From Dictyostelium discoideum (Eukaryota): a DNA stretch of 64,000 nt. The stretch's first letter is position 1. Every line of letters begins with the position of its first letter. A program made the position numbers and the translations under genes. Below are positions 7,200 through 61,895 of the stretch, piece after piece. The stretch is from NCBI GenBank assembly GCA_000004695.1, contig CM000152.2, positions 5,984,001-6,048,000 of the forward strand. Reading direction: 5' to 3'. The notes beneath the pieces are model-generated. The model was not told the DNA's origin. It searched no databases and saw only the letters and a program-made list of their open reading frames with translations.

Positions 7200-7307
7200 C
7201 AGAAATTTTTTTTATTTTTTTTTTATTTTTTTTTTTCAGTTCGGTTAAATTGAAAAAACCTTCATTTTTTATACCCTTTTCCAATTTTTCGTAATAAGTA
7301 GACAAAG

Positions 7308-8718: not shown

Positions 8719-8892
8719 ATGAATTTAATAGATTTAATATTAATGGCAATATACGTAATAGGAATATCCGGTTTAATTTTTAATAAAAATAATATTATTA
8801 ATATATTAATAATATCAGAATTAAACTTAAGAACATTAGGGATGTTATTTGTGTTATCTTTTATATATATATATATATATATTTATTATTAA
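8719..8892 (+). pseudogene. Truncated ND4L-like ORF (NADH dehydrogenase subunit 4L), 57 codons. Candidate nuclear copy of mitochondrial DNA, or a small hydrophobic ORF.
   Basis: MNLIDLILMAIYVIGISGLIFNKNNIINILIISELNLRTLGMLFVLSF fits the ND4L pattern (G..G....N.I..L...EL.L). It sits in a locally GC-richer block (8570..8880) that ends in an (AT)n run. It is only about 60% of normal ND4L length. Confidence 0.4.
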
Positions 8893-9045
8893 TTTTTTTT
8901 TTTTTTAACATTTTAAAAATGATCAGATTTTTGATTGAGGATTCTGTTTTTTATTTTTATTTTTTTTATTTTTTTTCATTTTTTTTTTATTTTTTTTATA
9001 ATATTTTCACACACCAAATCAAATCCAGGTATTTTAATAATAACA

Positions 9046-10522: not shown

Positions 10523-10562
<40 letters not shown>

Positions 10563-11716
10563 AATAAATATTTACTATATTTCTTTTTAATTGGTTTCTT
10601 TATATTTGAAGATGAAGGAATTAATGATTTATTAATTGGATTTTCAGTTGATTGTTGTAATTGATTTTCTTTTTTTTTCTTTTCTTTTTCTTTTTCAAAT
10701 TGTTTAACTCTATTAATAAATTCAGAATCTCTTGCATTTAAATTTTCTTCTTTCTTTTCAATATTTTTTAATTTTTCATTTAATTTCTTTTTAGATTCTT
10801 CATTGATATTATTGATTCTTTCATCCAATTTCTTTTTAGATTCTTCATTGATACTATTGATTTCTTCTTCTAACTTTTTCTTTGATTCCAATTGAATAGA
10901 GTTCATTTTCTTTTCCATTTCAAGATTAACTGTTTTCATTTTCAATTTAACTTGGTCATCAATCATTTTTTGATGTTCAGCTTTCATTCTTTCGGTTTTG
11001 ATATGATTTTTCTTTCCAATTAAGCATTTGTTAATTGATTCAATGATACCAGTATTGATTTTATTACCTTTAATTGTTAATGCTAAAAAACGATATTTAA
11101 TGAATTCAGGATTCTCGAATTGATGAAGGAAAGCATTGGCACCAGCATCACCAATTCCACAGAAAAACAATGAAAGATTCTTTAAACGACTTGAACCATT
11201 GATTAATTTGGATAAAATGATAGCACCTTCATTGGAGATTTTATTACTATTTAAATGAATGGTTTCTAATGTATGATTGACTGATAATGCATCTACTAAA
11301 TATTCCATTGATTTACCGGTTATATCACATTCAGAGATATATAATGATTTAAGTACACATTGTTTTGATTTCAATGATTGACATAATAATTTTAAACCTT
11401 GATCACCAATTGGATTATTATCTAACTTTAAGAATAACAAATAACGATTACTTTCAATACCTTCACATAAATGTTTTATACCTATATCTGTAATACTATT
11501 ACTTGAGAGATCTAATGATGAAACAATAGCTTGCTGCCCTAAAGCTTTGGAAATAGTTTTTACACCTTCATCACCCAAATTAATATTTTCTAACTTTATT
11601 AATGGGTGTGATTTTCCATTCATTAATACTTTAGAAATGGTTTTTGGATCATGATCACCAATCTTTTTAAAAAGATGACCTGCAGCTTCTAATGATACAC
11701 AATTATCATATTCCAT
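9980..11716 (-). CDS. Multidomain protein of about 552 aa: N-terminal RNI-type leucine-rich repeats, a central K/E-rich coiled coil, and a C-terminal degenerate Rho-type GTPase domain (pseudo-GTPase). Exons 11716..10576 and 10497..9980.
   Basis: ORF 10523..11716 holds LRRs (LDLSSNSITDIGIKHLCEGI..., LKLDNNPIGDQGLKLLCQSL...) and EESKKKL repeats. A GTAAAT donor (reverse complement of atttac at 10570..10575) and a CAG acceptor (10500..10498) join it in frame (phase 1) to ORF 9980..10429. The C-terminal FVNTSSDDRYSRLRALQYEQADAAVIAFTTNDRISFEDIPFQWIPEI aligns with Rac [47 protein letters not shown], but the P-loop reads IVIAGDKTKDKE instead of GDGAVGKT and DTAGQ is replaced by NTSSD. Confidence 0.65.
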
Positions 11717-35110: not shown

Positions 35111-41130
<6,020 letters not shown>

Positions 41131-41725
41131 AAACAATAATAATAATAAATTTTTTTTTTTATCTATGTTATAATTTATATATTTGTTTGTATTTATTTTT
41201 TAATTTTATTGACAATTGAATTAATAATGATGTAAAATAATATTATTCAAAATATTTAAGAAAGTAGAGTCCTAAAAAAAAATAATCTATCTAAAATAAT
41301 ATCTCCAAATAAATAAAAATTAATATCATATTCTTTCATGTATATATATATATATTTTTTTTTTCACTATTTGGATTGACTGTGTGGTCTGAAGATAATT
41401 ATTATTTTTTAAAGAATTTGACTTTTTTTTTTTTTAAAAATATTAAAAATAAATAATAATAAATTAAAAATAATATAAAAAAAAAAAAAGAATAATAATT
41501 ATTTTATAAATTATCTGCAACCAATATTAAATATTTTATTTTTATTAGTTTTTTTTATTTTTTTTTTTATAGGAAATTTTTTTTTTTTTACTTTTATTTT
41601 TAATTTTATACTTTTTATCACAGCAACTAATTATATTAATAGAGCAGAAAATAAAAAATTAAGCTTCACAAAGAAAAAAAAAAAAAAAAATTAAAATAAA
41701 AATAATAATAAAAAATTAAGCTTCA

Positions 41726-41726
<1 letters not shown>

Positions 41727-41792
<66 letters not shown>
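41727..41792. repeat. Poly(A) homopolymer of 66 nt. It is preceded by two copies of aataaaaaattaagcttcacaaa (41650..41672 and 41708..41729) and followed by a GT-rich block.
   Basis: Direct reading. Confidence 0.95.
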
Positions 41793-41793
<1 letters not shown>

Positions 41794-41796
<3 letters not shown>

Positions 41797-41846
41797 GGTG
41801 GTTGATTGAGTGTGTTTGATAAAAGTGTGGGTGTGTTAGTGTGTTT
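41794..41846 (+). promoter_or_regulatory. GT-rich block tttgggtggttgattgagtgtgtttgataaaagtgtgggtgtgttagtgtgt, G-box-like, about 450 bp upstream of the 42305 gene.
   Basis: Seen directly. Same motif class as 34593, 16045 and 62155. Confidence 0.3.
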
Positions 41847-42274
41847 ATTTAAATACAATGTGAATCATGTAATATTTCTATTTTTATTCATAATACTATT
41901 TTGTGTTTTTTTTTGTTTTTTTTTTTTTTAAAAAAAAAATAAAAATAATATTATTTTAATTATTTTTTTTTTTTGTTTTTATTATTTTTTTTCTTTTTTT
42001 TTATTTTTATTTTTATTTTTATATTTTATTCATTCACTTTTTTCCTCTATTAATCAATTTGTTCAATAAATTAATTTCAAAAAATAAATAAATAAAATTA
42101 AATAATATTTTTTTTATAATTTACAAAAAAAAAAAAAAAAAAAAATTAAAAATAAAAAATATAAAAAAAAAAAAATAGTAACACAACATATTATTATTAA
42201 TTTAATCTTGGAAAAATAAAAATAATAATAATAATAACAATTTAAGAAAATAAAAAAAATAATAAAAATTAATT

Positions 42275-42304
<30 letters not shown>

Positions 42305-42305
<1 letters not shown>

Positions 42306-45004
42306 TGTTAAACACAAAATCTTTTAATAATCATGAATTTATTATAAGTTCACCATCAAATATTTCACAAAGTACAATATCATTAATAAATAATAGTTCA
42401 TTAATTGGTAATTTAACAACAAATGAAGTTTTATTAGTTGGAATTAATCCAATTAAATGTAGTAAACCATTCAACAATGAATTTGAAATTAATCAAGATA
42501 TGAATAAAAAATTGGAAATGTTAGTTGAAAAAAAAGATTTTAAGAAAATTAAATCAATGATTGTAAAAGGTGAAAGATTTTACGTAACTCAAGAACTTTA
42601 CATACCAATTCTATTGTTTTGTCATGACAATGATTTCTATGAAAAACTTTTTAGATATGGGTTATTATTCGATACCAATTTAATCAAATTATCAGTTTTA
42701 ATCAATGAACCAACATCATTGGATTTAATGATAAATGTATTTGCAAATGGTTGGAATAATCATAGAAATGTTGGTTTTGAATTTTATAAAAACATTCTAA
42801 GGTTCGCAATTGAGAATAATACAACACAAACACCAACTAATAGAATCATAACATTCATGGCAAAGAAAGTAAACAAAACCGATGTGGCATTCATCATTGC
42901 AAATTTTATTAAACAACAATTTGATGAATATGAAACCAATCAATTCAAAGATAGAATCAATCAAAATAAAATTATTTCATCATGTGATTACATTAATTCA
43001 TTACATCTAAGAGTAAATGTATTGGAGGACCTTATAAATGAAAATTTTGAAAAGTTAACAAAACTCCATTACCTTCAATCAAACTCAAACTCAAACTCAA
43101 CAACATCAAAATTGAAAAAGTCTCAACTTCATGATATTGACGAATATGAATATTATGAAAGTTTATTAATTAAAAGGGAAATTGAAATTTGTGCAGCCAT
43201 TGAAACTGAAAAATTTGAAAGATCAAAAATATTTGGAATACAAACCGACTATAGTTTATCAAAAAGAATTGAAGGTTTCATTTGGGAATACTTTGAATTG
43301 ACTATGGAGAAGGCAATTAAAGATATGTCAAAGAAGATCTCTGCAAGTAGAATTCCATTTGTTAATAGCCATTACTCTGATTGTAAACTTTATCCAAAAT
43401 TTCATTTACTAGGTTACCTTAAACCTGAACATAGAATCATCTTTGAAAAGTATGATTACTATAATGATGGTGAATATGGTAAAATCAATACCTACAAAAG
43501 ATTCAATCTTTTAGATGAAAACAATTATGACATTTCAATATTAAAAAATCAATTAATCATTGAAAGTTATAAACTAAATGTATTTGGTAATGTTAAAAAT
43601 TTCATTAGTAACAATACCTCATTTAAAAATTCAAATACAGGTTTTGAATATTATGAATGGTCTGATATTTATCAATACACTAGAGAAACTAAAATTGGTT
43701 GTTTAAATTATTCAAATATTTTATTTAATGATAATTATTTTTTAATTAAAGTTGAAGATATTTATTGTTTTGAAGAATATAATAAAAAGAAAAAGAAGAA
43801 TAATATAAATAATAATAATAATAATTATAATAAAAATAATAATAATTATAATGGTTTTGAATTTACAAATGAAAAAGAAATTGAATCTTTTGAAATTCAA
43901 GAAAGTATTAATGGTATGAGTCCATATGCATTTAAACAATTAAGAGCAAAAAAAGTTAAACAAATTACACCTCCAATAATATTATCAAAAGAAGAAATTG
44001 AAAATCAATTATTAAAGGAAAAGGAATTTGAAAAACAATTGATTGAAGAGAAAAAGATTGAAAAAACAATACAAAAGAATAAAAAGAAATTGGAATTGGT
44101 TAAACAGAAACAAGCTGAAACCGATTCACAAAACAAATTAGATAAAAAGAATGAACAAGAACTTGAAAAGAAACAAAAAGAATTAGATTTTGAAAAAGAG
44201 AAAAAACAATTTGAAAACCAACAAAAGCAAAAACAAAAAAATAAATTAAAACAAAAACAACAACAAAAACAAAAGAATTTACAATTAAGAGTTTCACATC
44301 CTAATTGTCCAGCTTCAACATTATCAGTACCATTTTCATCTTCTTCCTCTTCCTCCTCCTCTTCTTCCTCTTCTTCATTAGCATCATCCTCATCATCATT
44401 AATAACTTCAAATGTTTCATTATCTTTATCACCTTCCTCATTAGCATTATCATCATCAACCTCATCAACCTCATCAATAATATCCTCATCCTCTTCTTCA
44501 CCATGTCAAAATTCAACGGCTTTAGAATATCCATTTATATCCTCCCCCTCAATTGATTCAACAACATCCAACACTTTACCAAATAATAATAATAATTTTA
44601 ATAATAATAATTTTAATAATATTAATAATTTCAATAATTTTAATAATTTTAATAATATCAATAATATTAATAATATTAATATTTATATTAATAATATTGA
44701 TATTAATAATAGTAATTATAATAGTAATTATAATTCTAAACCAAACAAAATTACAAATAATATTAATATTTATGTTGATGAAGCATCATTAAAGTATTAT
44801 CAATTAAATTTCTTTAAAATTGAAAATGATGATGATATTGATCCAAATATTCAACATGAAATTGATATAAAAGTAAATAGTTTAGTTGAAGATGATGATG
44901 ATTGTGAAAGTGAAGATGAAACAATAGATAATTATACACATAATATCAACAACAACAACAATACTAATAATAACAACAATAGCTACTTTCAAACTATTTA
45001 TTAA
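42305..45004 (+). CDS. Hypothetical protein, 899 aa. It has a structured N-terminal half, a K/E/Q-rich coiled-coil segment, a poly-Ser tract and an Asn-rich tail. Single exon.
   Basis: Complete ORF with an ATG in A-rich context. No family is recognised. Confidence 0.5.
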
Positions 45005-45324
45005 TTGCACTTCCTTTATTTCTTAAAATAAAATAATAATTTTCCAAAAAAATAAAAAAATAAAAAAAAATAAAAAAATAAAAAAAATTAAAAAAAAACT
45101 ACAAAAAATAAAACTTTTTCTTTCTTTTTAAAATAATTATTTATTTTTATTTTACTTCTATTATAATATTTATTATTATTATTACTATTATTATTATTAT
45201 CATTATTATTATTATTATTATTACTATTATTATTATTATTATTTTTAAAAATACATTCCAATAGGAAAATTTGTAATGGGAGAGGAAAGGAGGAGAAGAA
45301 GGGATGAATAAACTGATACGAGGT

Positions 45325-45900
45325 TCAATATTGAACTTGTTGTGGTTGTTGTAATTGTTGTTGTTGTTGTAATTGTTGTTGTAACTGTTGTTGTTGTAAT
45401 TGTAATTGTTGTTGTTGTTGTTCTAATTGTAATTGTTGTTGATATTGTAAATGGAAAAGTAAATGTGGATGAATTTCTGGTTCTTGTGGTTGTTCTGGTT
45501 CTTCTTTTTCTGGTGATGGTGATCTTGATCTTCTGTTTAAACCACATTCAATAACTTTATCATTTACAACATCAATAACACATTCATCCTTATTCATTAC
45601 AGACTCTTTGTATAAAATATATGGTAAACCGACAACTAAAACACAAGAGATAACTTCCAATACTTTACTCTTAAAATAACCATCTTTTGTAAAATTAAAT
45701 TCATCATTATTTATAACATCAAAACCATTTCTATATAAACGGAAATGTGTATGCTGTATTTTAAAAATAAAAAATTAAAAAAAAAAAAAAATTAAATAAA
45801 TATGATAGCTAGATTCGCTTTTTGTTTTTTAAAATTGTTAAAATAATATAATATTAATTGTATTAAAAATAAAAATAATAAAAAATTAAAAGAAGAGAGG

Positions 45901-45940
<40 letters not shown>

Positions 45941-46187
45941 ATACAAATTTGGTTGGAGGAGTTACTAAAAATGTATCACCAGCAAGTGTAAATCTTGTTA
46001 CATATTCTCTGGTGATTGATGGTATTTCAACAATATCATTCATCTTTATTGTTACTGTTTCTTGATGGTTACGAATTTCAAGAATATAATTTATTGAAAA
46101 ACCAGAATTTTTAAAATTCCATGTGGTTTTATGAACTCTATCTTTATCATCACCCGTTGGAATTGCTGAAATGTAAGTTTTTGGCAT
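45325..46187 (-). CDS. Hypothetical protein of about 223 aa with a Gln/Leu-rich C-terminus. Exons 46187..45945 and 45753..45325.
   Basis: Exon 1 MPKTYISAIPTGDDKDRVHKTTWNFKNSGFSINYILEIRNHQETVTIKMNDIVEIPSITREYVTRFTLAGDTFLVTPPTKF|gtatgt. Acceptor ttaaaatacag|CAT is in frame with ORF 45325..45660 (HTHFRLYRNGFDVINNDEF...). Confidence 0.5.
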
Positions 46188-47308
46188 TTTAAAATTGTAA
46201 TAATTTATTTATTTATTTATTTTTAATTGTATAATAATAAAATATTTATTTGTTTAATAAAAAATCAATTGTTTAAAAAAATAAAAAAAAAGAAAATAAA
46301 AAAAATGGTTTAAAATTTTTTTTTTTTTTTTTTTTTGTTTTTTTTTTTTTTTTGTTTTATAACTTAAGTTCTATAAATAAATTTTTGAATTTAATTCTTT
46401 CTATTATCTTTTTTTTTTTTTTTTTTTTTTTGTTTTTTTTTTTTTTTTTTTTGTTTTTTTTTTTTTTTTTTTTTTGTTTGATTATGATAAAGAAAAATAA
46501 AAAAAAAAAAAACCATTTTAAAAAAATTATCACTCAAATTTTTAATTATTTACCAGAAAAGAAACTCAAAAAAAAAAAAAAAACAAACATTTGACACTTA
46601 TTTCTTTTTTGGCTGGGCAAATAATTAAAAAAAAAACAAAAAAAAAAAATCTCTGGTTGAAATTGAATTTTTTGGCTTTAAAAAAAAATAAAAAAAAAAT
46701 AAAAATTTGAATTTTTTAAAATGGAGTCTAGGTTCAACACTTTGTATGGGCAATATATAGGAGACATAATTCTATTATATTATCAATAGTAACATATATT
46801 TTGAAAAATTTAAACAAAGAATAAGAGAATTTTCTATACCCGGTGAGCACATATTTATGATCTTGTTTTATTTTTTTAAACCAACCAATTTCTTTTATTT
46901 GTTTATTTATTTTTCTTTTTTTTTTTTTTTTTTTTTTTTTTTCTCATATTTTAATTTTTTTTTTTTTTTTTTTTTTTATTTCAGTGACGGATTAAATAAA
47001 TAATTTAATTTTAATAATAATAATAATATTCAAAGAAATTAACAAATATTTTCAATGTTTGTGTGTCGGTTGAAATTTTATTTTTTTAAATTATTTTTTT
47101 ATTTTTTTTTTATTTTTTTTTTTTTTTAATAAACTTAAAAATCTAAAAAAATTCTGATTTGATTTTTTATCATAATTTTACCAATTTTTTATTTTTATTT
47201 TTTATTATTTATTTTTATTTTTGTTTAAATTTTTTTTATTTTTTTTATTTTTTTTTTATTTTTTTTATTTTATGTGTATATATAAATAAATAATTAAAAT
47301 CAAAAGAA

Positions 47309-47649
47309 ATGTCATTATTTTATACAAAAGATGCAATTTCAGATTTCGAAAAAATACTAAATGGTTTAAATACATTTGATTCATTCCCACCTTTAAGAAT
47401 TTTATCTTTAGCAACTTATTGTAGAAAAGAAGAAGTTAAAGATTTTTTTAGTTTTATAGATTCAAATGGTGATACTTGTTTAACATTTATAATTCAATCA
47501 ACCGTTGAAAATAATGTAACACAACAATATAGATCAATTGTAGATAAATTTAAATTATTAGAAGAAAATATTGAACTTTTAAATTTACCAAATTCATATG
47601 GTGAGGTAGTGTATAAATATATTCTATATTTAATAATTTATTTGAATTG

Positions 47650-47695
<46 letters not shown>

Positions 47696-50199
47696 TATAC
47701 ATATAATTAATTTTTTATTTTCTTAAATAAAAAAAGACACCATTACATGTTTCATCAATATCAAATAATATAGAGTTTATGAAATTATTAGTTTTACAAG
47801 GAGTTGATGGATCATTAAAAGATAATAGAAATATGACAGCATTGGATATTGCGGTGATGATGGATCATAAAACAATTATTAAAGAATTAAAGAAATTGAA
47901 AACATCAATGATGACAATGGAACAAACATCAATTTATCAATGGGGTCAAATTTTAACAAGTAGTTTAACATTGAAATCATGTGCAAAAGCAACCAATATG
48001 TTATTTAATGATGAAATTTCAGCACCAATTCAAACAGAGTTTGGACAAAATTATAATTTAATTCTAACTGATACTGGTGCAGTGTATAGTTCAGGTTTAT
48101 GCTCCTATGGTAAAACAGGGCATAAAAAGAAGAGAGATGTATTAATACCAACACAAATATTAGAATTATCAAATAAACGTATCAAATCAATCGCATGTGG
48201 TACACATCATTCTTTGGCAATGGATGATTTGGGTCAAGTTTATTCTTGGGGGAATGGCGCAAGTGGTAGGTTGGGCCTGGGTAACGATTTCAGTATAGTA
48301 CCAACACCAACATTAATCAGCGTTATCAATAGATTTGGTTCTAATGAAATTGCCACTGCAATTGCAGCGGGTTGTGATAATTCAATGATATTAGGCTCAA
48401 ATGGAGATGTATACAGTTTCGGCAGTAATTTACATTATAAACTTGGTTATAAGGAGTGTGATGGCGCATTGGGGTTCCAATCAACTCCTAAGAAAATACC
48501 ATCAATACTTCAAATGAAATCAATTGCATGTGCAAGTTGGCATTCTGTATTCTTGGATCTCAAAGGCAGAGTTTATACATGTGGTTCAAGTACGAATGGT
48601 AGATTGGGTCGAGCAATTAGTTCCTATAGTTCATTTTACCCAGAACGTGTCTCAATCACCAATAGCAAAACCAATGGAACACTTCCACAAGAGGAAGTCA
48701 TTAAGCAAATTGCATGTGGTACTAATTTTACAACAGTTTTATCTGAAAGTGGTTCACTCTATTCATGGGGTGTAAATACGAAATCTCAATTGGGTTTAAT
48801 TAATTTAGTTGGAATTTCAGAGTATTATTCTCAACCAAAATTAGTAACTGCTTTAAACCCTTATACAATTCATTCATTTGCTGTTGGCGATCAACATGTT
48901 GTAGCATTGTCTGATCAAGGTGAAGTTTTCTGTTATGGTGATAATAGTACGCTTCAATGTGGTTTTGGTGAAGTATTAAATTTTGAGATTAATTTAACAA
49001 AAGTTAAAATTGAAACTACTTCATCCGATGCACCAATCATTGGTGGTGGTGGTGTTTTTAAAGTTTCTGCAGGTGGTTCAAATACTATGATATCATTATC
49101 ATCAGATCATAATATATTTGGTGAAGAATTATTAAAATCTTTAAATCTTCAAATGTTTACAGATTGTCGTTTAATTATTAATGATAATAAAGAACAATTC
49201 ATACAGGCTCATCAAGTTGTTTTAGCAGCACGTTCAAATAAATTTAATAAATTATTGGAATTACAACATAATTCAACTTTGGTTGGTGTTGATCAACAAC
49301 AACAGCAACAACAACAATGTAAAATACCACTCACTCAAACTACATTTTTAAAATCATTTATTGAATCAATTGGTACATTTGATATTGATGGTAATGAAAA
49401 TAGAGTATTGTATATTAGTTTTCCATCAATTTCATCAATTTCAATATTATCATTATTATTGAAATATATTTACTCTGATCATACTATTCTATCACAAAGC
49501 ACTAATCAAGAGTTGGGTGAATTAGCACATAGTTTAGAAATTGAAAGATTAGCATACCTTTGTAATTTCTCACATGGTAAATCATTAGATAAATTACCAA
49601 CATCAACATTACTTGAAGATTTTAGAATTTTAAAAGATCCTAAATTCTCTTCAATTTATTCAGATATTAAATTTAAATGTATTAATAATGGTGGTGGTGG
49701 TGGTGATGGTAATATGGTAGATGAGGCATATTTAGAAAAAAATAAACAACAAATTGAAACAGTTGAAAGTTATAAATTATTTGCATATACAGGTTCAAGT
49801 TATTTTAAAACAATGTTAAGTGGTAGTTTTATTGAAAGTAATAAAAAAGAGATTGAATTATTTGAAACTTCAGCATCAAGTTTAAGATTACTTTTAAATT
49901 ATTGTTACAGTGAAGAAATTCCAACCGATTCAAATGATTGTATTGATTGTATTATCATTTGTGATGTTCATCAAATTTCAAGAGCAAAAGATTCTTGTGC
50001 TGCTAAAATTAGATCTCAAATTGATATTCAATACATTTGTTACATTTATCATATCTCTTTAATCTATAATGTAAAATTATTAAAAACTTGGTGTCAAGCT
50101 AATTTTAATAGTATAGCTGATATTAAAGCATTACCTTATTTTAATCAATTACCAATAGAAATTCAATCAGAATTAAATTCAATAAAGAAAAAATATTAA
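47309..50199 (+). CDS. IBtk-like protein: ankyrin repeats, RCC1 repeats and two BTB domains. About 919 aa. Exons 47309..47605 and 47737..50199.
   Basis: Exon 1 ends ...LNLPNSYGE|gtagtg. Acceptor aaaaaag|ACA gives TPLHVSSISNN... (ankyrin), then RCC1 motifs (VYSWGNGASGRLGLG, VYSFGSNLHYKLGY, LYSWGVNTKSQLGL). BTB domains follow at DCRLIINDNKEQFIQAHQVVLAARSNKFNKLLE and YSDIKFKCIN...YKLFAYTGSSYFKTMLSGSF. Confidence 0.7.
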
Positions 50200-50360
50200 A
50201 TTTCTAGTTAAAAAAAAAAAAAAAATAAAAAAAAAAAAATTAAACATATACATATAGTTTAAAAACTTATTCAAATTGAAGAAAGAAAGAATAAACTTAA
50301 AAAAAAAAAAAACATTTAAAATTATAATTAAGTAAAAAATATAATTTATTTTTTTAATTT

Positions 50361-50736
50361 TTAATGGGTGGAATAGTAGAAAAATGCACATCCAGCAACA
50401 ACTAAAACAAAGATAATAGCGATGAAATAAATACCCTGTTTTTTTTTTTAATTTAATACAATTTATTAATATTTGTTTTTTAATTTTTTTTATTTTTTTT
50501 ATTTATTTATTATTTTGTATACATACTGCAAGTATTATTGAAGCAAATACAATTCTTCTTGCATGGATATTAGGTGATCTTATATATACAATGTTGAAAA
50601 GTAATGGTAACCAAAAAAATACACCCAAAATTATGAATGTTAATGAAAATGGATAATCATGTTCAAATTCTTTTGAATTTGATTCTGATTTATTTTTACA
50701 AATTTCATTTCCTTTTTTAAATTCAGGACTTGCTCC
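50361..50736 (-). CDS. Small two-pass membrane protein, paralog A. Last two exons 50736..50527 and 50435..50361; the 5' exon was not located.
   Basis: ...EFEHDYPFSLTFIILGVFFWLPLLFNIVYIRSPNIHARRIVFASIILA|gtatgt, then aaaaaaacag|GIYFIAIIFVLVVAGCAFFYYSTH*. The exon at 50736 begins directly at a caatag acceptor with an in-frame TAA upstream, so an upstream exon is needed. Confidence 0.45.
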
Positions 50737-51229
50737 CCTATTGTATTAAAATTAAAAAAAAAAAAGTAAAGATAAAATAGAAACGGGAAAAAAAAAAAAA
50801 AAAAAAATAAAAATAAGGAAAAGGAAAATAAAAAATAAAAAAAAAAAAGGAAAACGAAAATAAAAAAAACCCTAAAAAGGATAGTTTACAAATAAAATTT
50901 TTATTAATTTTTGAATGTGGGGAAAACCAAAAAATTCTAGATGTAAAAACACAGTTATTTAATAATAAAAAGTAGAAATAAAAATGGTGGTTGAGGTTAA
51001 AAAAAAATATATATAAAATTGTTACAAGGTATATGTTTCTCATTGGAATTATTAAACATATAATAATAAAAAAAAAAATTGGTAAAAACTAAAAAAAGTA
51101 TAGAAAAAAAAAAAAAGATTGAATAATCTTCATAGTATTAAAAAATTGATAAATTAAATAAAAATGATTGTTAATTTAATTTTTATTTTTTGTCAATTAT
51201 TTGACTTTTTATTTTAAAAATGGAAAAGT

Positions 51230-51654
51230 TTATATATAGTTCAATGGGGGATAAAGGTAAGAAATTGTCAATGAAATAACAGTAGCAATAAAATAACAAG
51301 TCTTTTTTAAAAAGAATAAAAGAGGAAATTTTAATATGTTATTATTGCTTTTTTATATTTTTTTTTTAATTTTTTTTTTTATTTACGTACTCCTATTATT
51401 AATGATGCTACAGAAAATCTTCTTGCTTGAATATTGGGAGATCTAAAAAATATAAGGTTGAAAATTAAAGGTAGCCAAAGAAATAAACCAGAAATTAAAA
51501 ATACTAAAGAATGTCTATAATCATCAGAATAATCTTTAACTCTTTGATTGTTATAATTTTGATTTATTTTTTCAAATTCTTTATTATTTTTAAATGACTT
51601 TGATTCATTCCCATTTTTTTCTACATCTAATTTATTTAAAATTTTTTCAGTCAT
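51230..51654 (-). CDS. Small two-pass membrane protein, paralog B, about 111 aa. Exons 51654..51391 and 51301..51230.
   Basis: MTEKILNKLDVEKNGNESKSFKNNKEFEKINQNYNNQRVKDYSDDYRHSLVFLISGLFLWLPLIFNLIFFRSPNIQARRFSVASLIIG|gtacgt, then ttttaaaaaag|TCYFIATVISLTISYLYPPLNYI*. Confidence 0.6.
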
Positions 51655-51956
51655 TTTAATTTATAAGAAAATAAAGTAAATTAAATTATATAACAACAAG
51701 ATAAAAAAATAATATTCACAATTTAAAAAAAAAAAAAAAAAAAATTTAATAGTGGACTTTTAAAAACAACACAGTCTTTGGAATAAAAGATATGTGTTTT
51801 TTATTTATTTTCAATAATTTTTCCAAGTTACCCCATTGTATTTTCAATTTTTATTAATTTTAATTTATTATTGTTATTTGAATTATTCTTTTTTTTTTTT
51901 ATAATTTTTTTTTTTATTAATATTATTTTAAAATATTCAATATAATAATCAATAAA

Positions 51957-52220
51957 ATGGAAGATTGTAATAATAATAATTATGAGGAAAATGAAAATGG
52001 GGCACAATTTAAATTATACAATAAAGACAAAGAAATAAACAATCCACAAACAAAATTTGATCAAAATGATTTAGATTATAAACTTGATTATGAATTTTCG
52101 TTAGGTTTTTTAATTGTTGGCATATTTTCATGGTTTTCATTTTTTTTTTATTTTATACATTAGATCTCTCAAAATTCTCATGCAAGAAGAATGTCTGCTA
52201 CATCAATAGTTATTGGAGTA

Positions 52221-52251
<31 letters not shown>

Positions 52252-52376
52252 CTGGAATATTAAAAAACTAAAAATTATTTTATTTTAATTTTCTTATAAT
52301 AAAGAGTTCTTATTTTATTTTTTTCTTTCTATTTTGGGTTGTGTTAACAGTTCCAAAGGAATACTATTATTATTAA
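51957..52376 (+). pseudogene. Small two-pass membrane protein, paralog C, with an in-frame TAG at 52161..52163 where paralogs A and B encode R/S. Exons 51957..52217 and 52305..52376.
   Basis: ...FSLGFLIVGIFSWFSFFFYFIH*ISQNSHARRMSATSIVIG|gtatgt, then aataaag|SSYFIFFFLFWVVLTVPKEYYYY*. The same frame continues through the TAG. Confidence 0.5.
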
Positions 52377-52389
52377 TTTAAAAAAAAAA

Positions 52390-52425
<36 letters not shown>

Positions 52426-52541
52426 TTAAATAATAAAAAAAAAATAATAATAAATAATTAATTTAAAGGATACTAAGTTATCTAATATTTTTTAAAATTA
52501 AGATTTGTTATTTTTTATTAAAGCTGCTATATTTGGGTGTT

Positions 52542-52636
52542 GTAGGGAAATTTTAGATTTTTTTTTTTCCTGGCTGTTGGGAAAAAAGCGCTATTTTTCC
52601 CTACACTGCTTAGTGAAATTTTTCACTACAGCCGGG
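52542..52636. other. GC-containing island with three interleaved inverted repeats: gtagggaaa/tttccctac (52542..52550 / 52597..52605), cctggctgt/acagccggg (52569..52577 / 52628..52636) and the hairpin tagtgaaa-tt-tttcacta (52611..52628). It is a candidate small structured RNA or regulatory element. A second island with the same AGCGCT core lies at 52707..52760.
   Basis: Complementarity read directly. It sits in the AT-only intergenic region between paralog C and the 53460 gene. Confidence 0.3.
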
Positions 52637-53459
52637 AAAAAAAAAATCTGCTTATTTTCACCGACCAAAAATAAATAAATGTTATTATTTGTTATAGTTA
52701 TTGTTGCAAGCGCTTAAAAAAGCTGAGAAATTTTTCAAATTAGATCCTGAAAAAATCGCAGCACCTAAGGTGAAAAAAAAAAAATTAAAAAATTTTATTT
52801 TAGCTTTTTTTTAATATTTTTTTAAATAAAAACAATCACTTTTTGTTAAATTACAACTTTGTTTTTAAATCAATACTTAATTTATTTATTATTATTATTA
52901 TTTTTTTTTTTTTATTTTTTTTTTATTTTTCTTTTTTATTTTTTTTTTATTTTTTTATTTTAGTTTATTTTAAAAATCTTTTAGTGAAATTATAATTTAT
53001 TTGATCTTTTTTTGTTTTTAATTTTAATAATGCATTTTTGTTTTTAGATTTATTATTGGGGTGGAAAAAATTATAATAATAAATTAAAAAAAAAAAGATC
53101 ATTCAACAAAGGGTTTGTCTCATCGCAAAAAAACTGAAAAAAAATTAAAAAAAAAATGTTTTTGTCATAAACACAAAAAAAAAAATATCTAAATGCTCAA
53201 AATATTTTGATTTTGATTTTTTGGGCAAGAAATTTGTAAAGTTGATTGGATGTAAAAAATTAAGTTTTTTTTTTAAATTTTATTTTTTACTTTCTAAATT
53301 TTAAAAAAAAAAGTTGATCATTATTTTTATTTTTTTTAATTTTTTTTTCATTATTTTTTTCTTTTAAACAGTGCAACTGGTAATACACCTCATATTTTTT
53401 TTTTATTATTTCCAAAATTAAATTTTTTATTTTTTTTTTTTTTTGAGGTAAAATGGAAA

Positions 53460-53834
53460 ATGGATCAACATAAAAATATTTTATTTAAAAGAATAGAGGA
53501 AATATCAACCAGAGAATTATATCATTTACAAACTAAAGTTAAAATAATAAAATTATTAGAAGAATTAACACAAGAAGATGTTAAAGAAATTGTCAAAAAT
53601 AAAATATTTAATGAATTAAAATCCCCAAGAGATTTATTAAACCATAAAAAAACCCATAGTTTTATTAAATCTTCAAATGAAGGAGTATTTATACCCATAA
53701 AAAGAAATATTGAAAGGATTAATTTAATAAAATTAGATATATTAAATTTACAATTTTATAATACTATTATTGATAACAACAATAACAACAACAACAACAA
53801 CGACAACGACAACGACAACAACAACAACAACCAA

Positions 53835-53878
<44 letters not shown>

Positions 53879-53938
53879 TAATGGATTAAATGATAATCAA
53901 CAAAATAAAGAAAATGATGATTTCGAAAATGATCAAAT

Positions 53939-53986
<48 letters not shown>

Positions 53987-54046
53987 TAATGGATTAAATG
54001 ATAATCAACAAAATAAAGAAAATGATGATTTCGAAAATGATCAAAT

Positions 54047-54112
<66 letters not shown>

Positions 54113-54218
54113 TGTATTAAATGATAGTCAACAAAATAAAGAAAATGATGATGATGGTAGAGATTACAATCCTATATATGTTGATTATAATGACTTCGAA
54201 AATGATCTAATTGATAGA

Positions 54219-54314
<96 letters not shown>

Positions 54315-57300
54315 TATATTGATAAATCAAAAATTGAAGAAAGACCAATAGCAGATGATCTTTTTCAAATTCAATCATTTTTACATCCATCCATTGATGA
54401 TACTATTCAACATAATCATAAATCTGATAGTGAAGTTTCAACACCATCAATATGTTCTATATCACCATTACAACCAATTACAACTCATCAACTACAACAT
54501 AATAAAATAAATAAATCAATTGATAACAGTTTCAACTTTGGAAATGATAATAATAATAATATTAGTAATAATAAGTTAACAAATGTTAGTGAAATAAAAA
54601 ATAAAATAATAGAAATCTTAGATTATTATATTAAATCTCACGAACAATTCATTCAAGAGTTTATAAGATTAGCTCATGATCCAAATAAAAATCCAGACTC
54701 TCTATTTGAAGAGTTTCCAGTAATACTTGGTGAAGATTTGGTTTTTAGAGAATTAAATTCATTAAAAAAAGGCTATGAAATTTCTTCATATGATACAAGA
54801 GTGCATAGATTTGTTCATTTTAATAAAACTGGTGTAAATAAAGGTAGAACAGTGAATAATGTTTACTTTAAAAATGGTGACTCTGGTTTATTAAATCCAG
54901 CAAAAGAGGATGCGGTTTATCAAATTTATAAATTAATATTCCCAACATTTTTTCATGAACTAATTGCACCCACACAATTTTTAAGAGTTGTAGATTTACC
55001 AATAATGCCAGATATAGGTGAAAAAAATACAAATGGAATTTTTCCAAAAAGAGAATATAACAAAGTTATGGGTTCTATGAACCCAACAGAAGTCTATGAA
55101 ATTGATCCTCAATTTCAAAAAAAAGTGGAATCAGAAATTTTAAAAAAGAGTCAAGTAAATCTTCAAGCATCTTTAATAATTAAAGGTGAAACACTAGAGT
55201 CATTTTTACAAAAACATTCAGACCCAAACAATCAATATGGAATTGAAAACTTAGATATTAAAAGTTATAGTGCTCATATATTATCAAGTCTATTAATTAT
55301 CCCAACAGATTGTAAACCTGATAACTTAATAGTAAATGAATTAAATAAATTGGTTGTAATTGACAACGATAGAGCATTTGAATGTGGTGAAATTAAAAAA
55401 CATGGAAGTTCCGAAGATATTATTGGTGCAAAAAATATATTGTATATATTAAAGCCATTAATGAATAGACAAATTGATAAAGAAGTAATACAAGAGTTCA
55501 TTGGGCATCATCCAAATGAATTACTTTTAAAATGGTTATTATCATTACATGAAAAAGAAAATTTATATGATTCATTAATTAAATTTTCCACCGATTTTGT
55601 TTCTCAAGATGAAAAACATACTAAGAATACTATAAATTTACCACTTAAATTTCATAAAGGTTGGATAACATCAATGTTGGATAGATTTAAATTAATTAAT
55701 AAAACATTAAAAGAATCAAATTTTAAAATATCACATCAACAGTTATTTAAAGTTGTTCATCCATTAGCAAGTTTATTTTATAAATTTGCATCAAAAGAAA
55801 TTGGTGGAGATCCACTTGATCAAATTTATCATATCTATGATTATAGTGAAATAGAAACAAAAAAAAAAATTAATTTAGAATTTAAATATTTACTAAAAAA
55901 ATATTCAAATTTACCACATGAATTAGAAAAACTTAATTCAATTCGACCTCTTTCGAAACCAGATTTAACAATAGTTGAAACAATTAAAGAATTATTATTA
56001 GTTTCAAAAGTAAAACATTTTGATTGTCCTATTAAATTTTTAAAATTAATTTTACAATTTATAAATAATTTCAATTGTAATAATAATAATAATGATAATA
56101 ATAATAGAGAAACATTCATATTTCATGAATCATGGGTTGAATCAAATTATATGATTTTAATAAAATTATTTCAAAGTGATATCTCAACAGAATTAATTGA
56201 AACATTTATAAAAAACACATCAATTACAATTGAAAATATAAAAACAAATTCTTCAATTTTACATACAGCAATAAAATCAAAAAATGATAATTTATGTAAT
56301 CAAATTCAATTTTTAGTAGAGTTTGGAGAAGATATTAATAGAATTCATGATAATTTAACACCATTAGATTTAGCTGTACAAGCGAAACAATTTCAAACAT
56401 TTGTTAAAATAATAGAATTGGGTGGTGGTTTAAATGCAAACAATGAAAACATTAAAAATTATTATAGTACTTTGACACATGATCAAAAATGTCAATTAAA
56501 GCCATTAATTGAAAATCAATTATTTCACGTTAATCCAAATTTAATATGGGAACTATCATTAGATTATCTATTACCAATTATTAATGATGAAGAAATTTAT
56601 AATAATAATAATAAAATAATTTTTGGTTTAGTAAATAAAAGAAAAATTTCAGAAACTATTTGGAATACATTATTTGATTCAAAAGGTTTGCCAAATAAAC
56701 CAATTGAGCGTGGAAAGAGATCAGTCATATTAATTGAAAATAAAGAATATGGATTAGGAATTTATTTTAAATTTAAACCACAATTTCCAGGTATTGAATA
56801 TGCAGTTGGAAAATTATCAGAGAAATTGTTTGGATCATTTTCACATAATATCGAATTGGTATATATAAATAAAGAATCAGTATTACTATCTCAAAAAGTT
56901 TATGGTGAACCAATAATATCAACATTAAAAAATGATCCAACAATTTTAAAAACAATTGATAAATCAAATTTATCAAAACAAATTGTATTTGCAATTTTAA
57001 TTAATAATGCAGATGGAAATTTAGGAAATTTTATAATATCACCAACAACAAATCCAAATTGTAATAGATTGATTTCAATTGATAATGATCAATCATTTGT
57101 ACCGGCAGCTTATTCAACTGGTGGTTTTTTACTTAGTAAAGTTATATTAAGAATTCAAAATGTATTATTTTTATTAGATGAAATGTTTGAACCAATACAT
57201 CAAGATGTAATCAATTCAATTATTAATATTGATATAGATAAATTATTTAAAGATTGGGTGAACATATTAATGAGTCATCATAATGATACAATACATCATT

Positions 57301-58643
57301 TGAAATGTATGAAATATGATATACATGAAGATTCAATAATTGGTATACCATTTAGTACCGATAGTATGAAATCATTATTTACAAAGATAACTAGAATTCA
57401 AAGACAATTTATAAAAGGTAAATCAATGACTCATTTAGAATTATTAACTCTATTAGAACCATTGATTGCAATTAGATATACACCCTTTCTTTTAAATAAA
57501 AAAATTTCAACCTTTGATAAATTCACCAACCTTATGAGTATCACTGAAAAAGATATAAATAAATTATTAATTGCCTCATCTTGCACAATTAATGATTCAC
57601 AAATGATCTTGGTTACAAGAGACATACAAAATCCAAAAACCCTACAAAAAGAATTATTCCATGGTAAATATAGACCAGAGATAGCATTCAAAGAAATGAA
57701 ACAACATTTTTCAAACATTGATGAAGTATTGGAACAATTGAAAATGAATAAACAAGCAAACATTACAATTACAGATCATCAACTCGAAGATTTATTAAAA
57801 GAAACAGATTTTAGCAAATATGATATAAATCAAGAAAAGCTATTATTTGAATTGATAAAACAATCACAGATTAAATACGTTTATTTAAAGAATTGTTCAA
57901 GTATTGATTCAAAAACTTTTGGGGAATTTAAAATCAATTTAATTACAAAGATGGATTTATCAGGTTGTTCAAATTTAATATATTTTGGTTATTATATATT
58001 TTTAAGTAGTAGTATTATAACTTTACCATCATTAACTCATTTCAAAGCTAGTGGTTGTAATAAATTAAGTCAAATTGTTATTGAATCACCTCATTTAAGA
58101 ATTTTAGATTTATCAGATTGTCCATTATTACAAGATTTTCTAACCTATAGAGCAACAGGTTTACAATCATTGAATTTAAATGGTTCAATTAATAATTCAA
58201 AAGTTTTAGATAATATAAATAGTTATACAGAATTAACTTATTTAAACATTTCAAGAATCATTGGTGATGTTAATGTTTCAGAATTACATTTCCTTTTCAA
58301 AGAATTACAACGTTTAGTTGCAAAAGAAATAAAATCTTTGAAACTTGTTTATTTAGTTCTTCCAAATATTAAAAAAATAGATTTTGAACATTGTAATGAT
58401 TTGGAAACAATTTTTAATTCTAGAAAAAACTTTCACCAAGAACAACATATTGAAATTTGTGTTCATAATTCCGAAAAGGTTAAAATTAAAAAAGAATTAA
58501 AACCAATGTATCATTATTCAATAGATAAATTATTAATTCATTCAATTCAAGATTTAAATGATATTAAACAATATAATTATGATTTATTAAATGGTAAAAA
58601 TTATTATTTAAAATTTAGTAATGATTTTAATTTTATATTATAA
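53460..58643 (+). CDS. Giant multidomain protein (1727 aa as a single ORF) with two PI3/PI4-kinase-like modules of the PI4K type II kind, an ankyrin-like segment and C-terminal Cys-containing LRRs. It is probably spliced to the downstream FNIP-repeat ORF.
   Basis: Module 2: GIYFKFKPQFPGIEYAVGKLSEKL...QIVFAILINNADGNLGNFIISP...RLISIDNDQSF. Compare PI4KII GSYFVKD...KPK.EEPYG and [20 protein letters not shown]...IAAIDNGLAF. Module 1: LLIIPTDCKPDNLIVNELNKLVVIDNDRAFE. LRR-like region LSGCSNL...LDLSDCPLLQ. An internal perfect tandem repeat lies at 53838..54300. Confidence 0.55.
53838..54300 (+). repeat. In-frame tandem repeat inside the 53460 gene. Two perfect 108-bp units (53871..53978 and 53979..54086, NKNNGLNDNQQNKENDDFENDQIDS + (N)n) plus a diverged third unit, flanked by (AAT)n.
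   Basis: Identical nucleotide strings aataaaaataatggattaaatgataatcaacaaaataaagaaaatgatgatttcgaaaatgatcaaattgatagtaataat occur twice. Confidence 0.85.
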
Positions 58644-58765
58644 AAATTTATTATTAATTTTTATTTTTTATTTTTTTTTTATTATTATTAGGGTCAGATA
58701 ATATTTCAAAACGTGAAACTATATTAAAATTTAGTAATGATTTTGATTTTAAAGTTTTATACACT

Positions 58766-60628
58766 ATGATACCAGATGATATTAAAAATTTATGTTTAGG
58801 TAATATTAAAATTCCATTTCATTTACAATCAATACCAGATTCTGTAAAGATGATAACTTTTGATGATGGTTATAGCCATAGGATCAGTCCTTTAAATATT
58901 CCAACTAAAATTAAAACTTTATGTTTTGGTAATGTTACATTTCGTATTGATCCTAAGTCAATACCATCAACGGTTACAGAATTAAGATTTTGTAAAGGAT
59001 TTAATCATGTTATTGTACCAATTTTCATACCAAAATCAGTTATAACAATGTATTTGGGTGAAATCGATTATCCATTAAAAAGGTATTCAATCCCTCAATC
59101 TATAAAAACTGTATGGTTTTATGAATTTTATCATCCAATTAACAAAGATGTAATACCAATCACAGTTGAAAAAATGATAATTTGTAGTATAAAATCAAAA
59201 TTAGTAAATGGTTCAATACCATCAACTATAAAGGAATTAAGACTATGTAATGGTTTTAATATTAATTTAACTCATGGTATAATACCAAATACTTTAGAGA
59301 GATTATATATTGGCAAAATTACATATCCATTATCAAGAAGTTCTTTACCTTTAGTTAAAGAATTAATATTTTATAATAATTTCAACCATATATTAACATC
59401 AGATTTAATACCAGATTCAGTTAAAAAACTTAGTTTTGATAAAATTGAAAATGCATTAAGTGAAAATGTAATCCCATCAAATGTTAAAGTTTTATATTTT
59501 ACTAGAGGTTATAAACATCCAATATCTTCAAAAATAATTCCAAATAATACTGAAACATTAATTATTGGCGATATTAAATATCCAATGGACCATGATGCAA
59601 TTCCTTCAACTTTAAAACATTTAATATTAACAAATGGATTTCATAAAACTAATATCACATTGGAAATGATACCTAAAACTATTAAAAAGTTAACGCTTGG
59701 TAAAATCAATGACCCAATTAAAATAAAACAAATACCAACCTCTGTAAAATGTTTAGCATTAGGAGAATTTAATGAAACTATATCAAGAATGATACCAAAA
59801 ACAGTTGAATCATTATTTTTTGCTAATATTACTTATCCCTTCACATCGAATTTAATACCATCAAATATTAGTACTTTAGGTTTTTATGGTGGATTTAATC
59901 ATGAAATTAAATTCAAAATGATACCAAACACAATTAATTCACTTTATTTTGGTAATTCAAATCGAGTGGCTGAAAGAGATTCAATTCCTACAAATATTAA
60001 AAATTTAGAATTCAATGAAATGTTTGCATTTAAAATTACAAATAATTTAATTCCAATTACCATTGAACAATTAACATTGGGTGAAATTAAATATCCACTT
60101 GAAGTCAATTCAATACCATCAAATGTAACAACGTTAATTCTTGGTGATGGTTTTAATCATGAAATTAAATCATTAAATATAATTCCAAACACTATTGAAA
60201 CTTTAAAATTAGAAGATATCGAATATCCATTACATTTAAATTTACTTGATTTAAAAATAAAGAATTTAATAATAACTCGAGGTTATAAATTTTATGTTGA
60301 TCCAAATGAAATACCTGAAACTGTTGAAAAACTTTATTTAGGTAAAATTAAACAACCAATAAAAGCAGATTCAATACCACCAACTGTTAAAGAATTAATT
60401 TTATGTGATGGATTCAATCATAAAATAACACCAGATTTAATTCCAAAAACAATTGAAACTATATCAATTGGTTTCATTATTTATCCATCATCAATTTATT
60501 CAATACCAAACACTGTAAAATTATTAAATATTGGTATGGGATTCCCTCTTGAAATCAATGCAGAAGATTTTCCAAAATCAACTAAATTAAATTTTAAGAA
60601 TTCATCAATTAATACTAAAATTCTTTAA
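58766..60628 (+). CDS. FNIP-repeat protein, 620 aa as a stand-alone ORF. It is probably exon 2 of the 53460 gene, joined through a candidate intron at 58618..58691.
   Basis: About 20 tandem about 22-residue FNIP/LRR-like repeats (IPxSVKxLxFGxxFNHxIxxxxIPxTVxxLxxG). A 30-bp duplication of the upstream gene's terminal codons (aatttagtaatgattttRattttaWa) sits just 5' of the ATG. Confidence 0.75.
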   Translation: MIPDDIKNLCLGNIKIPFHLQSIPDSVKMITFDDGYSHRISPLNIPTKIKTLCFGNVTFRIDPKSIPSTVTELRFCKGFNHVIVPIFIPKSVITMYLGEIDYPLKRYSIPQSIKTVWFYEFYHPINKDVIPITVEKMIICSIKSKLVNGSIPSTIKELRLCNGFNINLTHGIIPNTLERLYIGKITYPLSRSSLPLVKELIFYNNFNHILTSDLIPDSVKKLSFDKIENALSENVIPSNVKVLYFTRGYKHPISSKIIPNNTETLIIGDIKYPMDHDAIPSTLKHLILTNGFHKTNITLEMIPKTIKKLTLGKINDPIKIKQIPTSVKCLALGEFNETISRMIPKTVESLFFANITYPFTSNLIPSNISTLGFYGGFNHEIKFKMIPNTINSLYFGNSNRVAERDSIPTNIKNLEFNEMFAFKITNNLIPITIEQLTLGEIKYPLEVNSIPSNVTTLILGDGFNHEIKSLNIIPNTIETLKLEDIEYPLHLNLLDLKIKNLIITRGYKFYVDPNEIPETVEKLYLGKIKQPIKADSIPPTVKELILCDGFNHKITPDLIPKTIETISIGFIIYPSSIYSIPNTVKLLNIGMGFPLEINAEDFPKSTKLNFKNSSINTKIL

Positions 60629-60634
60629 ATTACT

Positions 60635-60810
60635 TTATGGGGTATATGTAATAATAATAAAAAAAAAAAGAATAATTAAAATAAAAAAAAATAAAAATAA
60701 AACACTGGAAAATTAAAAAACAAAAACTAAAAATTATTTTATTTAAATAAACAGTTCTTTTTTTTCTTTTTATTTTGAGTTATGGTAACAATTCCCAAGG
60801 AATTTTATTT
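60635..60810 (+). repeat. Diverged copy (about 75%) of 52195..52376, the exon-intron junction plus terminal exon of small-TM paralog C. An orphan 3' fragment of that family downstream of the FNIP ORF.
   Basis: ttatggggtatatgtaa ...actggaaaattaaaaaacaaaaactaaaaattattttattt...aaacagttcttttttttctttttattttgagttatggtaacaattcccaaggaat aligns with ttattggagtatgtaaa...actggaatattaaaaaactaaaaattattttatttt...aaagagttcttattttatttttttctttctattttgggttgtgttaacagttccaaaggaat. Confidence 0.65.
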
Positions 60811-61139
60811 AATAATTAAAAGGAATATTTATGCAGTACTTTGACTAAAAACCCCAAATGTAATAGCTGTAATAATAATAAAAAAAAAATAAAAAATAAA
60901 AAATAAAAAATAAAGATTGTTGTAATTTTAAATAATAAAAAAGAAAATTTAAAAATAAAAATAATAAAAAAGTGATAATTTGTTATTTACTTAAAAAAAA
61001 AAAATGGAAATAATTTATTTATTTATTTATTTATGTTTAGTTAATTGATTTTTTTTATTTTTTTTTTTTTCTAATGAAGATAGATATATGTTTTTACATT
61101 TCATTAAGTATGGTTGGTTAGTTTTTTGATTAAAATAAT

Positions 61140-61895
<756 letters not shown>

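Follow-up and report, generated by a model that had tools for sequence, protein, structure and literature searches.

Locus organization and genomes compared

The 64,000-nt stretch analysed here (the window) lies on Dictyostelium discoideum chromosome 3 (contig CM000152.2, positions 5,984,001 to 6,048,000) and carries, around 51 kb, a cluster of three small genes, A, B and C, which encode related proteins with two hydrophobic segments. The window can be taken as AX4 reference sequence, since the gene models DDB_G0282635 (P0004) and DDB_G0282637 (P0017) are built from exactly this sequence; protein B matches D. discoideum database proteins at 99% identity. The GC content is approximately 20%, with long A/T runs and short AT-rich introns throughout. 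BLASTP and rebuilt gene structures confirmed the three adjacent paralogs, A and B on the minus strand and C on the plus strand, as described in the initial annotation of this DNA:

50736..50361, minus strand: paralog A, 94 codons (exon 50736..50527, intron 50526..50436, exon 2 50435..50361)
51654..51230, minus strand: paralog B, 111 aa (exon 1 51654..51391, intron 51390..51302, exon 2 51301..51230 including the TAA)
51655..51956: 302-bp spacer separating B from C, which are transcribed divergently; presumed to be a shared promoter region
51957..52376, plus strand: paralog C, DDB_G0282637 (exon 1 51957..52217, intron 52218..52304, exon 2 52305..52376), with an in-frame TAG at 52161..52163

B is the only intact stand-alone family gene in the window, and no further copies are present in the window beyond A, B, C and a fragment near 60.7 kb. 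Syntenic loci were obtained through exact-protein look-ups and are listed below with their family content:

L005: D. discoideum, chromosome-level record CM142509.1 (GCA_054883475.1), colinear with window 40302..61663 at 99.6% identity; A (truncated), B and C, as in AX4
L001: a more divergent D. discoideum isolate, 86-95% identical to the window; A, B and C', with C deleted
L002: D. cf. discoideum, a sister species; A, B, C, B2 and C'
L003: a second locus of D. cf. discoideum
L004: D. dimigraforme, a sister species; B, C and C'

The comparison assemblies, including that of AX2-214, the one lab strain sequenced, are from Holland et al. 2025 (PMC12745789). According to the same study, AX4 and AX2 are 99.5% identical at the tgrBC locus on chromosome 3. 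Based on its chromosome-level record, near-identity and colinearity with the window, L005 is probably AX2-214.

A loop-motif scan of the window and the five further loci, in which each copy was spliced, gave 21 copies and partial copies that fall into four gene types, A, B (with its duplicate B2), C and C'. The C-type and B-type genes were duplicated as a pair, and the head-to-head C-type/B-type pair recurs in L002 (C-B and C'-B2), L003 and L004. The second D. cf. discoideum locus (10550-10758 minus, 11035-11161 plus) repeats the C'-B2-C-B order, with a 5'-truncated C copy and a partial B copy without a start codon or recognisable terminal exon. A dispersed A-type copy (P0013, 112 aa) lies away from the cluster on another contig of the L001 assembly (L006, 6001-6432); no AX4 counterpart of P0013 turned up in protein searches.

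Gene structure and protein features

The three paralogs match each other in pairwise BLASTP with E values of 1e-20 to 2e-24 and identities of 41-46%. Their proteins have a polar N-terminal region, a first helix with a conserved Gly...Trp-x-Pro...Phe-Asn, a short basic loop of the form (R/K)S-x-N-x-x-A-R-(R/K) and a second helix. The conserved Gly and Pro lie inside helix 1, and the loop holds three basic residues and no acidic one. Kyte-Doolittle hydropathy gives two hydrophobic segments in each of A, B and C. An AlphaFold2 model built from a 13-sequence alignment is a two-helix hairpin (helices 23-70 and 75-104) with a mean predicted local distance difference test score (pLDDT) of 65, in which the first helix is continuous. 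The two hydrophobic helices per protein proposed in the initial annotation are borne out by both results. The products are probably small hairpin membrane proteins, with the basic loop tentatively placed in the cytosol, and they may act as membrane adaptors or regulators.

A phase-0 intron interrupts A, B and C at an identical alignment column and is found at the same place in 20 of the 21 copies and partial copies, the exception being a B-type fragment in L003, so that the common intron position noted earlier holds across the loci. This intron splits helix 2, and in spliced copies exon 2 always starts with (S/T/G)xYF. The ratio of nonsynonymous to synonymous substitution rates (dN/dS) between A, B and C and their L001 and L002 orthologues is 0.23-0.35, which marks them as real coding genes. 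For B the ratio is 0.23-0.28. The B protein is 94% identical to the 111-aa model P0002, and its orthologues in two sister species have 104 and 120 aa. In the AX4 annotation, B has no entry of its own as a 111-aa stand-alone gene, and two fused models, DDB_G0282635 (P0004) and P0001, have taken over its exon 1.

The in-frame TAG of paralog C

Relative to L005 and the outgroups, the lesions of paralog C in the window are clustered in a short interval:

52137..52200, plus strand: lesion cluster of C, six changes within 64 bp

Four of the changes are substitutions (C>T at 52137 and A>T at both 52142 and 52149, all three within a T-rich stretch, and G>A at 52200), and the other two are indels, namely a TA deletion after ~52157 (in ATATAC) and a CT insertion at ~52168 (in TCTC). 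The two indels bracket 10 nt, CATTAGATCT, which are read as CAT TAG ATC T instead of (TA)C ATT AGA TCT. Since the deletion and the insertion shift the frame over these 10 nt, the TAG is a frameshift by-product and not a point nonsense mutation. The initial annotation had placed the TAG opposite an R/S of A and B; it aligns instead with the I/F that precedes the conserved R. Around the stop, the family's invariant Pro and Asn and a near-invariant Arg are lost from the peptide.

In L005, C is intact, reading GIFSWFPLFFNFIYIRSQNSHARRM at the lesion and encoding ...GIFSWFPLFFNFIYIRSQNSHARRMSAAS..., and it is also intact in the two sister species. Because the C copies of D. cf. discoideum (L002, L003) and D. 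dimigraforme (L004) share the L005 state at the lesion, the window state is the derived one. Over 2.9 kb around the cluster, the window and L005 differ almost only at 52137..52200, and over 21.3 kb they differ at about seven places, homopolymer lengths aside. A second cluster of differences lies at 45805-45818, with five substitutions in 14 bp of an AT-rich, intron-like stretch, where L001 and L002 agree with L005. All differences that could be polarised (two clusters, 45805-18 and 52137-69, and three single sites, 50737, 52200 and 53832) are derived in the window, with no derived state on the L005 side. A run of 30 A stands 25-90 bp from the C cluster, and Sanger reads degrade at long A runs. 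If L005 is AX2, and the two sequences thus go back to one shared isolate, the one-sided and clustered nature of the derived differences favours a base-calling error in the Sanger-era AX4 reference of 2005 as the probable source of the TAG. The initial annotation had looked to resequencing as the way in which the TAG could turn out to be a sequence error, and this is close to being the case, as an independent long-read assembly with 99.6% identity has an intact C.

The stop has also left its mark on the annotation. The AX4 model P0017 (Q54S72, 94 aa) excises 52116..52163 as a 48-nt GT..AG 'intron', which hides the TAG. In L005, the model of the downstream gene with FNIP repeats (1036-9698, 2447 aa) begins at the ATG of C and so absorbs C exon 1.

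Loss of the start codon of paralog A

Paralog A has no in-frame ATG, and an in-frame TAA stands just upstream of its open reading frame (ORF). The initial annotation took this to mean that a 5' exon was missing. No such exon exists, because the A genes of L001 and L002 carry the ATG in the same exon, at a place that is deleted in the window and L005:

50737..50760, minus strand: site of a 44-bp deletion that removed the ATG and first codons of A (alignment A7 of the window, L005, L001 and L002)

In alignment A7 the 44-bp gap is present in the window and L005 and absent from L001 and L002, and the upstream bases left over in the window and L005 have drifted. The L001 and L002 orthologues begin MNDS(R/K)KYDIESTSGASPEF; their first codons are ATG AAT GA(C/T) TCT ..., reading MNDS(R/K)KYDIESTS, then GGAGCAAGTCC. 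In the ancestral A, the ATG therefore stood 39 nt upstream of GGAGCAAGT, within that exon. In the window, A is most likely a recent pseudogene.

A enters the databases only because gene finders spliced the first exon of B onto it. The two fused models do this in different ways. P0001 uses a donor 4 nt beyond the usual one of B together with a G-rich acceptor, and P0004 adds a frame-shifting mini-intron and deletes the first helix of B. What the deletion left behind, aatacaatag, looks like a 3' splice site.

The fragment near 60.7 kb and the FNIP neighbourhood

About 8 kb downstream of C, a piece of a further family copy and part of its flank were found:

60678..60821, plus strand: orphan fragment, made up of a C-type intron tail and terminal exon, 76% identical to C, without exon 1
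60822..60918, plus strand: fragment flank, duplicated together with the fragment and homologous to sequence downstream of C

The fragment has a local (Smith-Waterman) alignment score of 38, against a window-wide null with a mean of 13, a standard deviation of 3.2 and a maximum of 25. One Trp codon, TGG, is now TGA, and the fragment is located in the 3' flank of the FNIP-repeat gene. It is a relic, now dead, of the 3' end of a C-type gene. The core of the flank, TAAAAACCCCAAATGTAATAGCTGTAATAA, given also as TAAAAACCCCAAATGTAAT(A/G)GCTGTAATAA, matches in colinear orientation the L001 segment that adjoins B, which is the region downstream of where C lies; homology with L001 past the fragment stops at 60918. 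The fragment is present in L001 and L005 and was not found downstream of the FNIP gene in L002 and L004.

The initial annotation had described a 175-bp copy of the C junction and terminal exon at 60635..60810. The fragment itself is real, at 60678..60821, and the supposed exon junction belongs to the 3' flank of the FNIP gene. The letters at 60635..60650 (TTATGGGGTATATGTAA) are the native flank of that gene, and the similarity to the junction is coincidental, because D. cf. discoideum, although it has no such fragment, shows the same flank after its FNIP stop. This conservation rules out a model in which a large tandem duplication ended at the FNIP stop, with the fragment marking its breakpoint. 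The weaker statement that survives is that the fragment is a relic of a segmental duplication that included the 3' flank of C. The earlier suggestion that the family duplicates in pieces was sound, as seen in the 60.7-kb fragment, the truncated C and B copies of L003 and an orphan C' exon in L002.

The fragment is a decayed remnant inside an array of units, each with a small gene and a FNIP gene, because L001 and L002 show family genes or exons and further FNIP copies at the equivalent place. After the fragment, L001 carries an intact C' gene along with a second copy of the FNIP gene. At ~925-975 (minus) of L002, an orphan C'-type terminal exon (...tataaatag, then SSYFANWINFW and a stop) lies downstream of the FNIP gene, and the start of another FNIP copy follows ~0.9 kb later.

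The neighbouring FNIP gene (53460-60628) is large, with poly-Asn tracts and a C-terminal exon with 13 FNIP repeats (Pfam E = 1e-82). Its 5' region in AX4 (window 53423-54512) was compared with L001 6-877 and 8444-9653. Its identity to the second FNIP copy in L001 is 90-94%, as against only ~86% to the positional orthologue, though the body of that orthologue matches at 95%. This pattern suggests recombination or gene conversion between FNIP copies. On the other side of the fragment, a gene for a Ras/Rho-type small GTPase is found (61140-61733, minus); the poly-Lys run with which its mechanical ORF opens is only a translated A-tract.

Between C and the FNIP gene, a segment of ~85 nt just downstream of C (52445-52540) is inverted when compared with both its homologue in L001 (9800-9900) and the copy beside the orphan fragment (60845-60880). 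A GC-richer element of ~250 nt (52520-52775) folds as a long hairpin, with arms at 52559-86 and 52619-46 and an RNA fold z of -4.0. The stretch around this element, ~52546-53033, has no counterpart in L001. It was either inserted in the AX4/AX2 lineage or deleted in L001, and the element itself could be a miniature inverted-repeat transposable element, a non-coding RNA or something else. Rfam gave nothing for the whole window at gathering thresholds, with only sub-threshold microRNA-like matches in 52400-53100.

Interpretation of the cluster

Taken together, and with a probability of roughly 0.75 for the explanation as a whole, the locus is best explained as a decaying cluster of small membrane-protein genes in which the stop of C is probably a reference error. 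The genes belong to an uncharacterised, Dictyostelia-specific family of proteins of ~100-120 aa, which evolves through local duplication, inversion, deletion and decay. A lost its ATG by the 44-bp deletion and is most likely a recent pseudogene, and C is a normal gene in the sister lab strain, its TAG in the window arising from the -2/+2 indels that accompany four substitutions. The fragment at 60.68-60.82 kb is what a segmental duplication next to FNIP-repeat gene copies has left of a C-type 3' end and its flank. The cluster is a case of ordinary gene birth and death, with nothing pointing to a new mechanism.

Some points weigh against this explanation. L005 is only probably AX2-214, and a base-calling error and a true AX4 lesion would look alike in the assemblies compared. 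The history proposed for the fragment accounts for its position only in part: it stands on one side of a 30-nt flank motif in the window and on the other side in L001. To these are added two features of A: the deletion created the acceptor-like, AT-rich aatacaatag directly before its ORF, and that ORF is open for 94 codons with no disabling mutation downstream of the deletion. Both features would suit a living A, expressed as a B-A fusion with a tandem double hairpin of four helices, as modelled in DDB_G0282635 and ACTFIT_011999, and two independent annotations do join exon 1 of B to A. Such a fusion is nevertheless unlikely. When the normal phase-0 donor of B is spliced to the aatacaatag acceptor, the product reads ...IIG-GSKS-stop, with the stop after four codons, and the published models require a shifted donor (P0001) or an extra frame-shifting intron (P0004). 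Furthermore, B still ends in a conserved terminal exon and a stop to itself, ~490 bp upstream of A, and the two are separate genes in every other genome. The intron required would be ~650 nt, which is long for Dictyostelium discoideum.

For the TAG of C, the initial annotation offered a young pseudogene or a read-through site. The former stands as an alternative, possible but clearly less likely than the reference error given the intact C of L005. Under it, C would be a truly young pseudogene of the AX3/AX4 lineage, in which error-prone repair, slippage or, for example, mutagenesis while the strain was being derived had caused all the changes in one complex event. The window does carry the lesion and the AX4 annotators modelled around the TAG (P0017); moreover, each indel falls in a dinucleotide microrepeat (ATATAC and TCTC), a natural place for slippage, and the family demonstrably loses copies, with C deleted in L001 and A truncated in the window. 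However, the window has the derived state for six changes in 64 bp, for five in 14 bp and at three single sites, and L005 has it nowhere over 21 kb, a density far above expectation for two lab descendants of one isolate. Mutations caused by nitrosoguanidine are expected to be G:C>A:T, and the changes are not of this type. Read-through or recoding of the TAG, by which full-length C protein would be made in AX4, is effectively excluded. The frame is restored after the TAG and the remainder of C, including the terminal exon, is intact, but the restoration occurs only because the -2 and +2 indels bracket 10 nt, and the resulting peptide, SFFFYFIH-stop-IS, replaces the invariant P and N and the near-invariant R. 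The sister strain has an intact C allele, and neither a conserved stop nor a conserved frame context, by which a recoding site would be recognised, is found, the TAG being absent from L005, L002, L003 and L004. We know of no stop-codon reassignment in Dictyostelium, which also counts against read-through. It is likewise very improbable that what look like genes are pieces of some repeat or mobile element. Partial copies do occur, and the structured 250-nt element at 52520-52775 adjoins C, but the copies are confined to syntenic positions with the same neighbours in five genomes, are under purifying selection as judged by dN/dS and have a conserved splice structure. There are no terminal repeats or transposase, and the window holds no tRNA genes and hence no sign of tRNA-targeted retroelements.

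For the annotation, it follows that two AX4 gene models are artefacts around the deletion and the probable sequence error, namely the fusion DDB_G0282635 and the pseudo-intron of DDB_G0282637. B is a real 111-aa gene without a separate entry in AX4. Before an in-frame stop of the 2005 reference is read biologically, it should be compared with the new long-read assemblies. The family is also a small, clean example of the birth and death of genes for lineage-specific membrane proteins. Were the B-A fusion true instead, the capture of a start-less A by the first exon of B in the NC4 lineage would be a gene fusion caught at birth.

Relation to known protein families

A profile search of 1.84 billion representative proteins gave only 37 matches at E<1e-3 (1e-42 to 1e-4). 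The matches looked up are proteins of the dictyostelids D. purpureum, D. firmibasis, P. violaceum, H. album and T. lacteum, together with a single euglenid protein, a single entry from a EukProt transcriptome and several unnamed proteins from metagenomes or run assemblies. A word-indexed protein search with a broad profile added only two more dictyostelid proteins. The family core reads D[FY]xxSLxxFxLGxFxxxP[WLF]xF[GN]xxY[LI][KR]SxNxxA[RK]....S, followed by the second helix. The motif D[FY]xxSL..G...[WF]xP..F[NG]..[YF][IL][RK]SxNxxA[RK] with its second helix is matched in full by A and B; it is also matched by the C of L005, and is disrupted in the C of the window.

The initial annotation recognised no known family, and Pfam scans agree: nothing above threshold and no recurrent family was found for A, B, C, 10 distant homologues and 42 domain sequences. 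The best match in a PDB sequence search had an E of 0.42, and no Foldseek match in PDB fell below E=1. No paper was found on DDB_G0282635 or DDB_G0282637, and the distant paralog DDB_G0281147 appears only in a gene list of a restriction enzyme-mediated integration (REMI) screen for chemorepulsion (PMC9073555).

The layout of the proteins raised the idea of membership in CD225/dispanin (PF04505: IFITM, PRRT2, TRARG1), which the profile tests did not support. With a PF04505 gathering score of 27.1 bits and five control CD225 sequences scoring 86-103 bits, PF04505 matched none of A, B and C at E<=10, and none of the 10 distant homologues and 42 domain sequences at E<=1. An hhalign comparison of alignment A5 (42 sequences) with A6 (five CD225 sequences, a shallow alignment of limited power) gave a probability of 15% over 23 columns, covering only the loop end and helix 2, and PRRT1 appeared in the PDB search at E=3.2 only. 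Like the A/B/C family, the dispanins are small, with a variable and often Pro-rich N-terminus, a Pro-containing first hydrophobic segment, a short basic loop starting with (K/R)S and a second helix, and by eye the D-Y...W-P...N-I-V...S-R-N of PRRT2 resembles the family motif. The loop of the A/B/C family, however, is ~10-13 residues shorter than that of CD225 and is without the GD...A...S...AK signature. In the dispanins the first hydrophobic domain is re-entrant and both N-terminus and loop are cytosolic; the Gly and Pro conserved within helix 1 and the basic, acid-free loop of the A/B/C family are at most indirect hints of such a topology, and helix 1 is continuous in the AlphaFold2 model. 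The likeness is one of layout only and not demonstrated homology.

PEN-2, HtrII and TMEM230/134 are generic two-helix membrane hairpins, similar in length to the hairpin predicted for the A/B/C family but with no sequence motif in common with it. Their Foldseek and Pfam matches are weak and below significance, with E>1 for PEN-2 and HtrII, and E of 0.002-0.07 in two of the 42 members for TMEM_230_134.

The closest likenesses are within the dictyostelids. DDB_G0282635 and DDB_G0282637, listed by dictyBase and UniProt as 'transmembrane protein' (Q54S72), are the same genes as those of the A/B/C cluster, with wrong model structures. Five long homologues from other dictyostelids (P0019, P0022, P0029, P0035 and P0038) have N-terminal poly-Pro tracts, e.g. 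DPRLLPPPPPP, and a conserved SNY(M/F)NW(T/S)LP(Y/F)Y motif ahead of the two-helix core, and this N-terminus may be a protein-interaction region. It is a doubtful but conceivable extension that the two-helix core is a real, previously undescribed membrane-protein domain family across Dictyostelia and a few other protists, with Pro-rich N-termini in its long members, with a dispanin-like layout in which a kinked first hydrophobic segment precedes a basic cytosolic loop and a transmembrane helix, and with small group-4 members turning over rapidly beside FNIP genes. The dictyostelid relatives DDB_G0281147, DICPUDRAFT_41377 and PPL_02347 have the same two-helix core as the A/B/C family.

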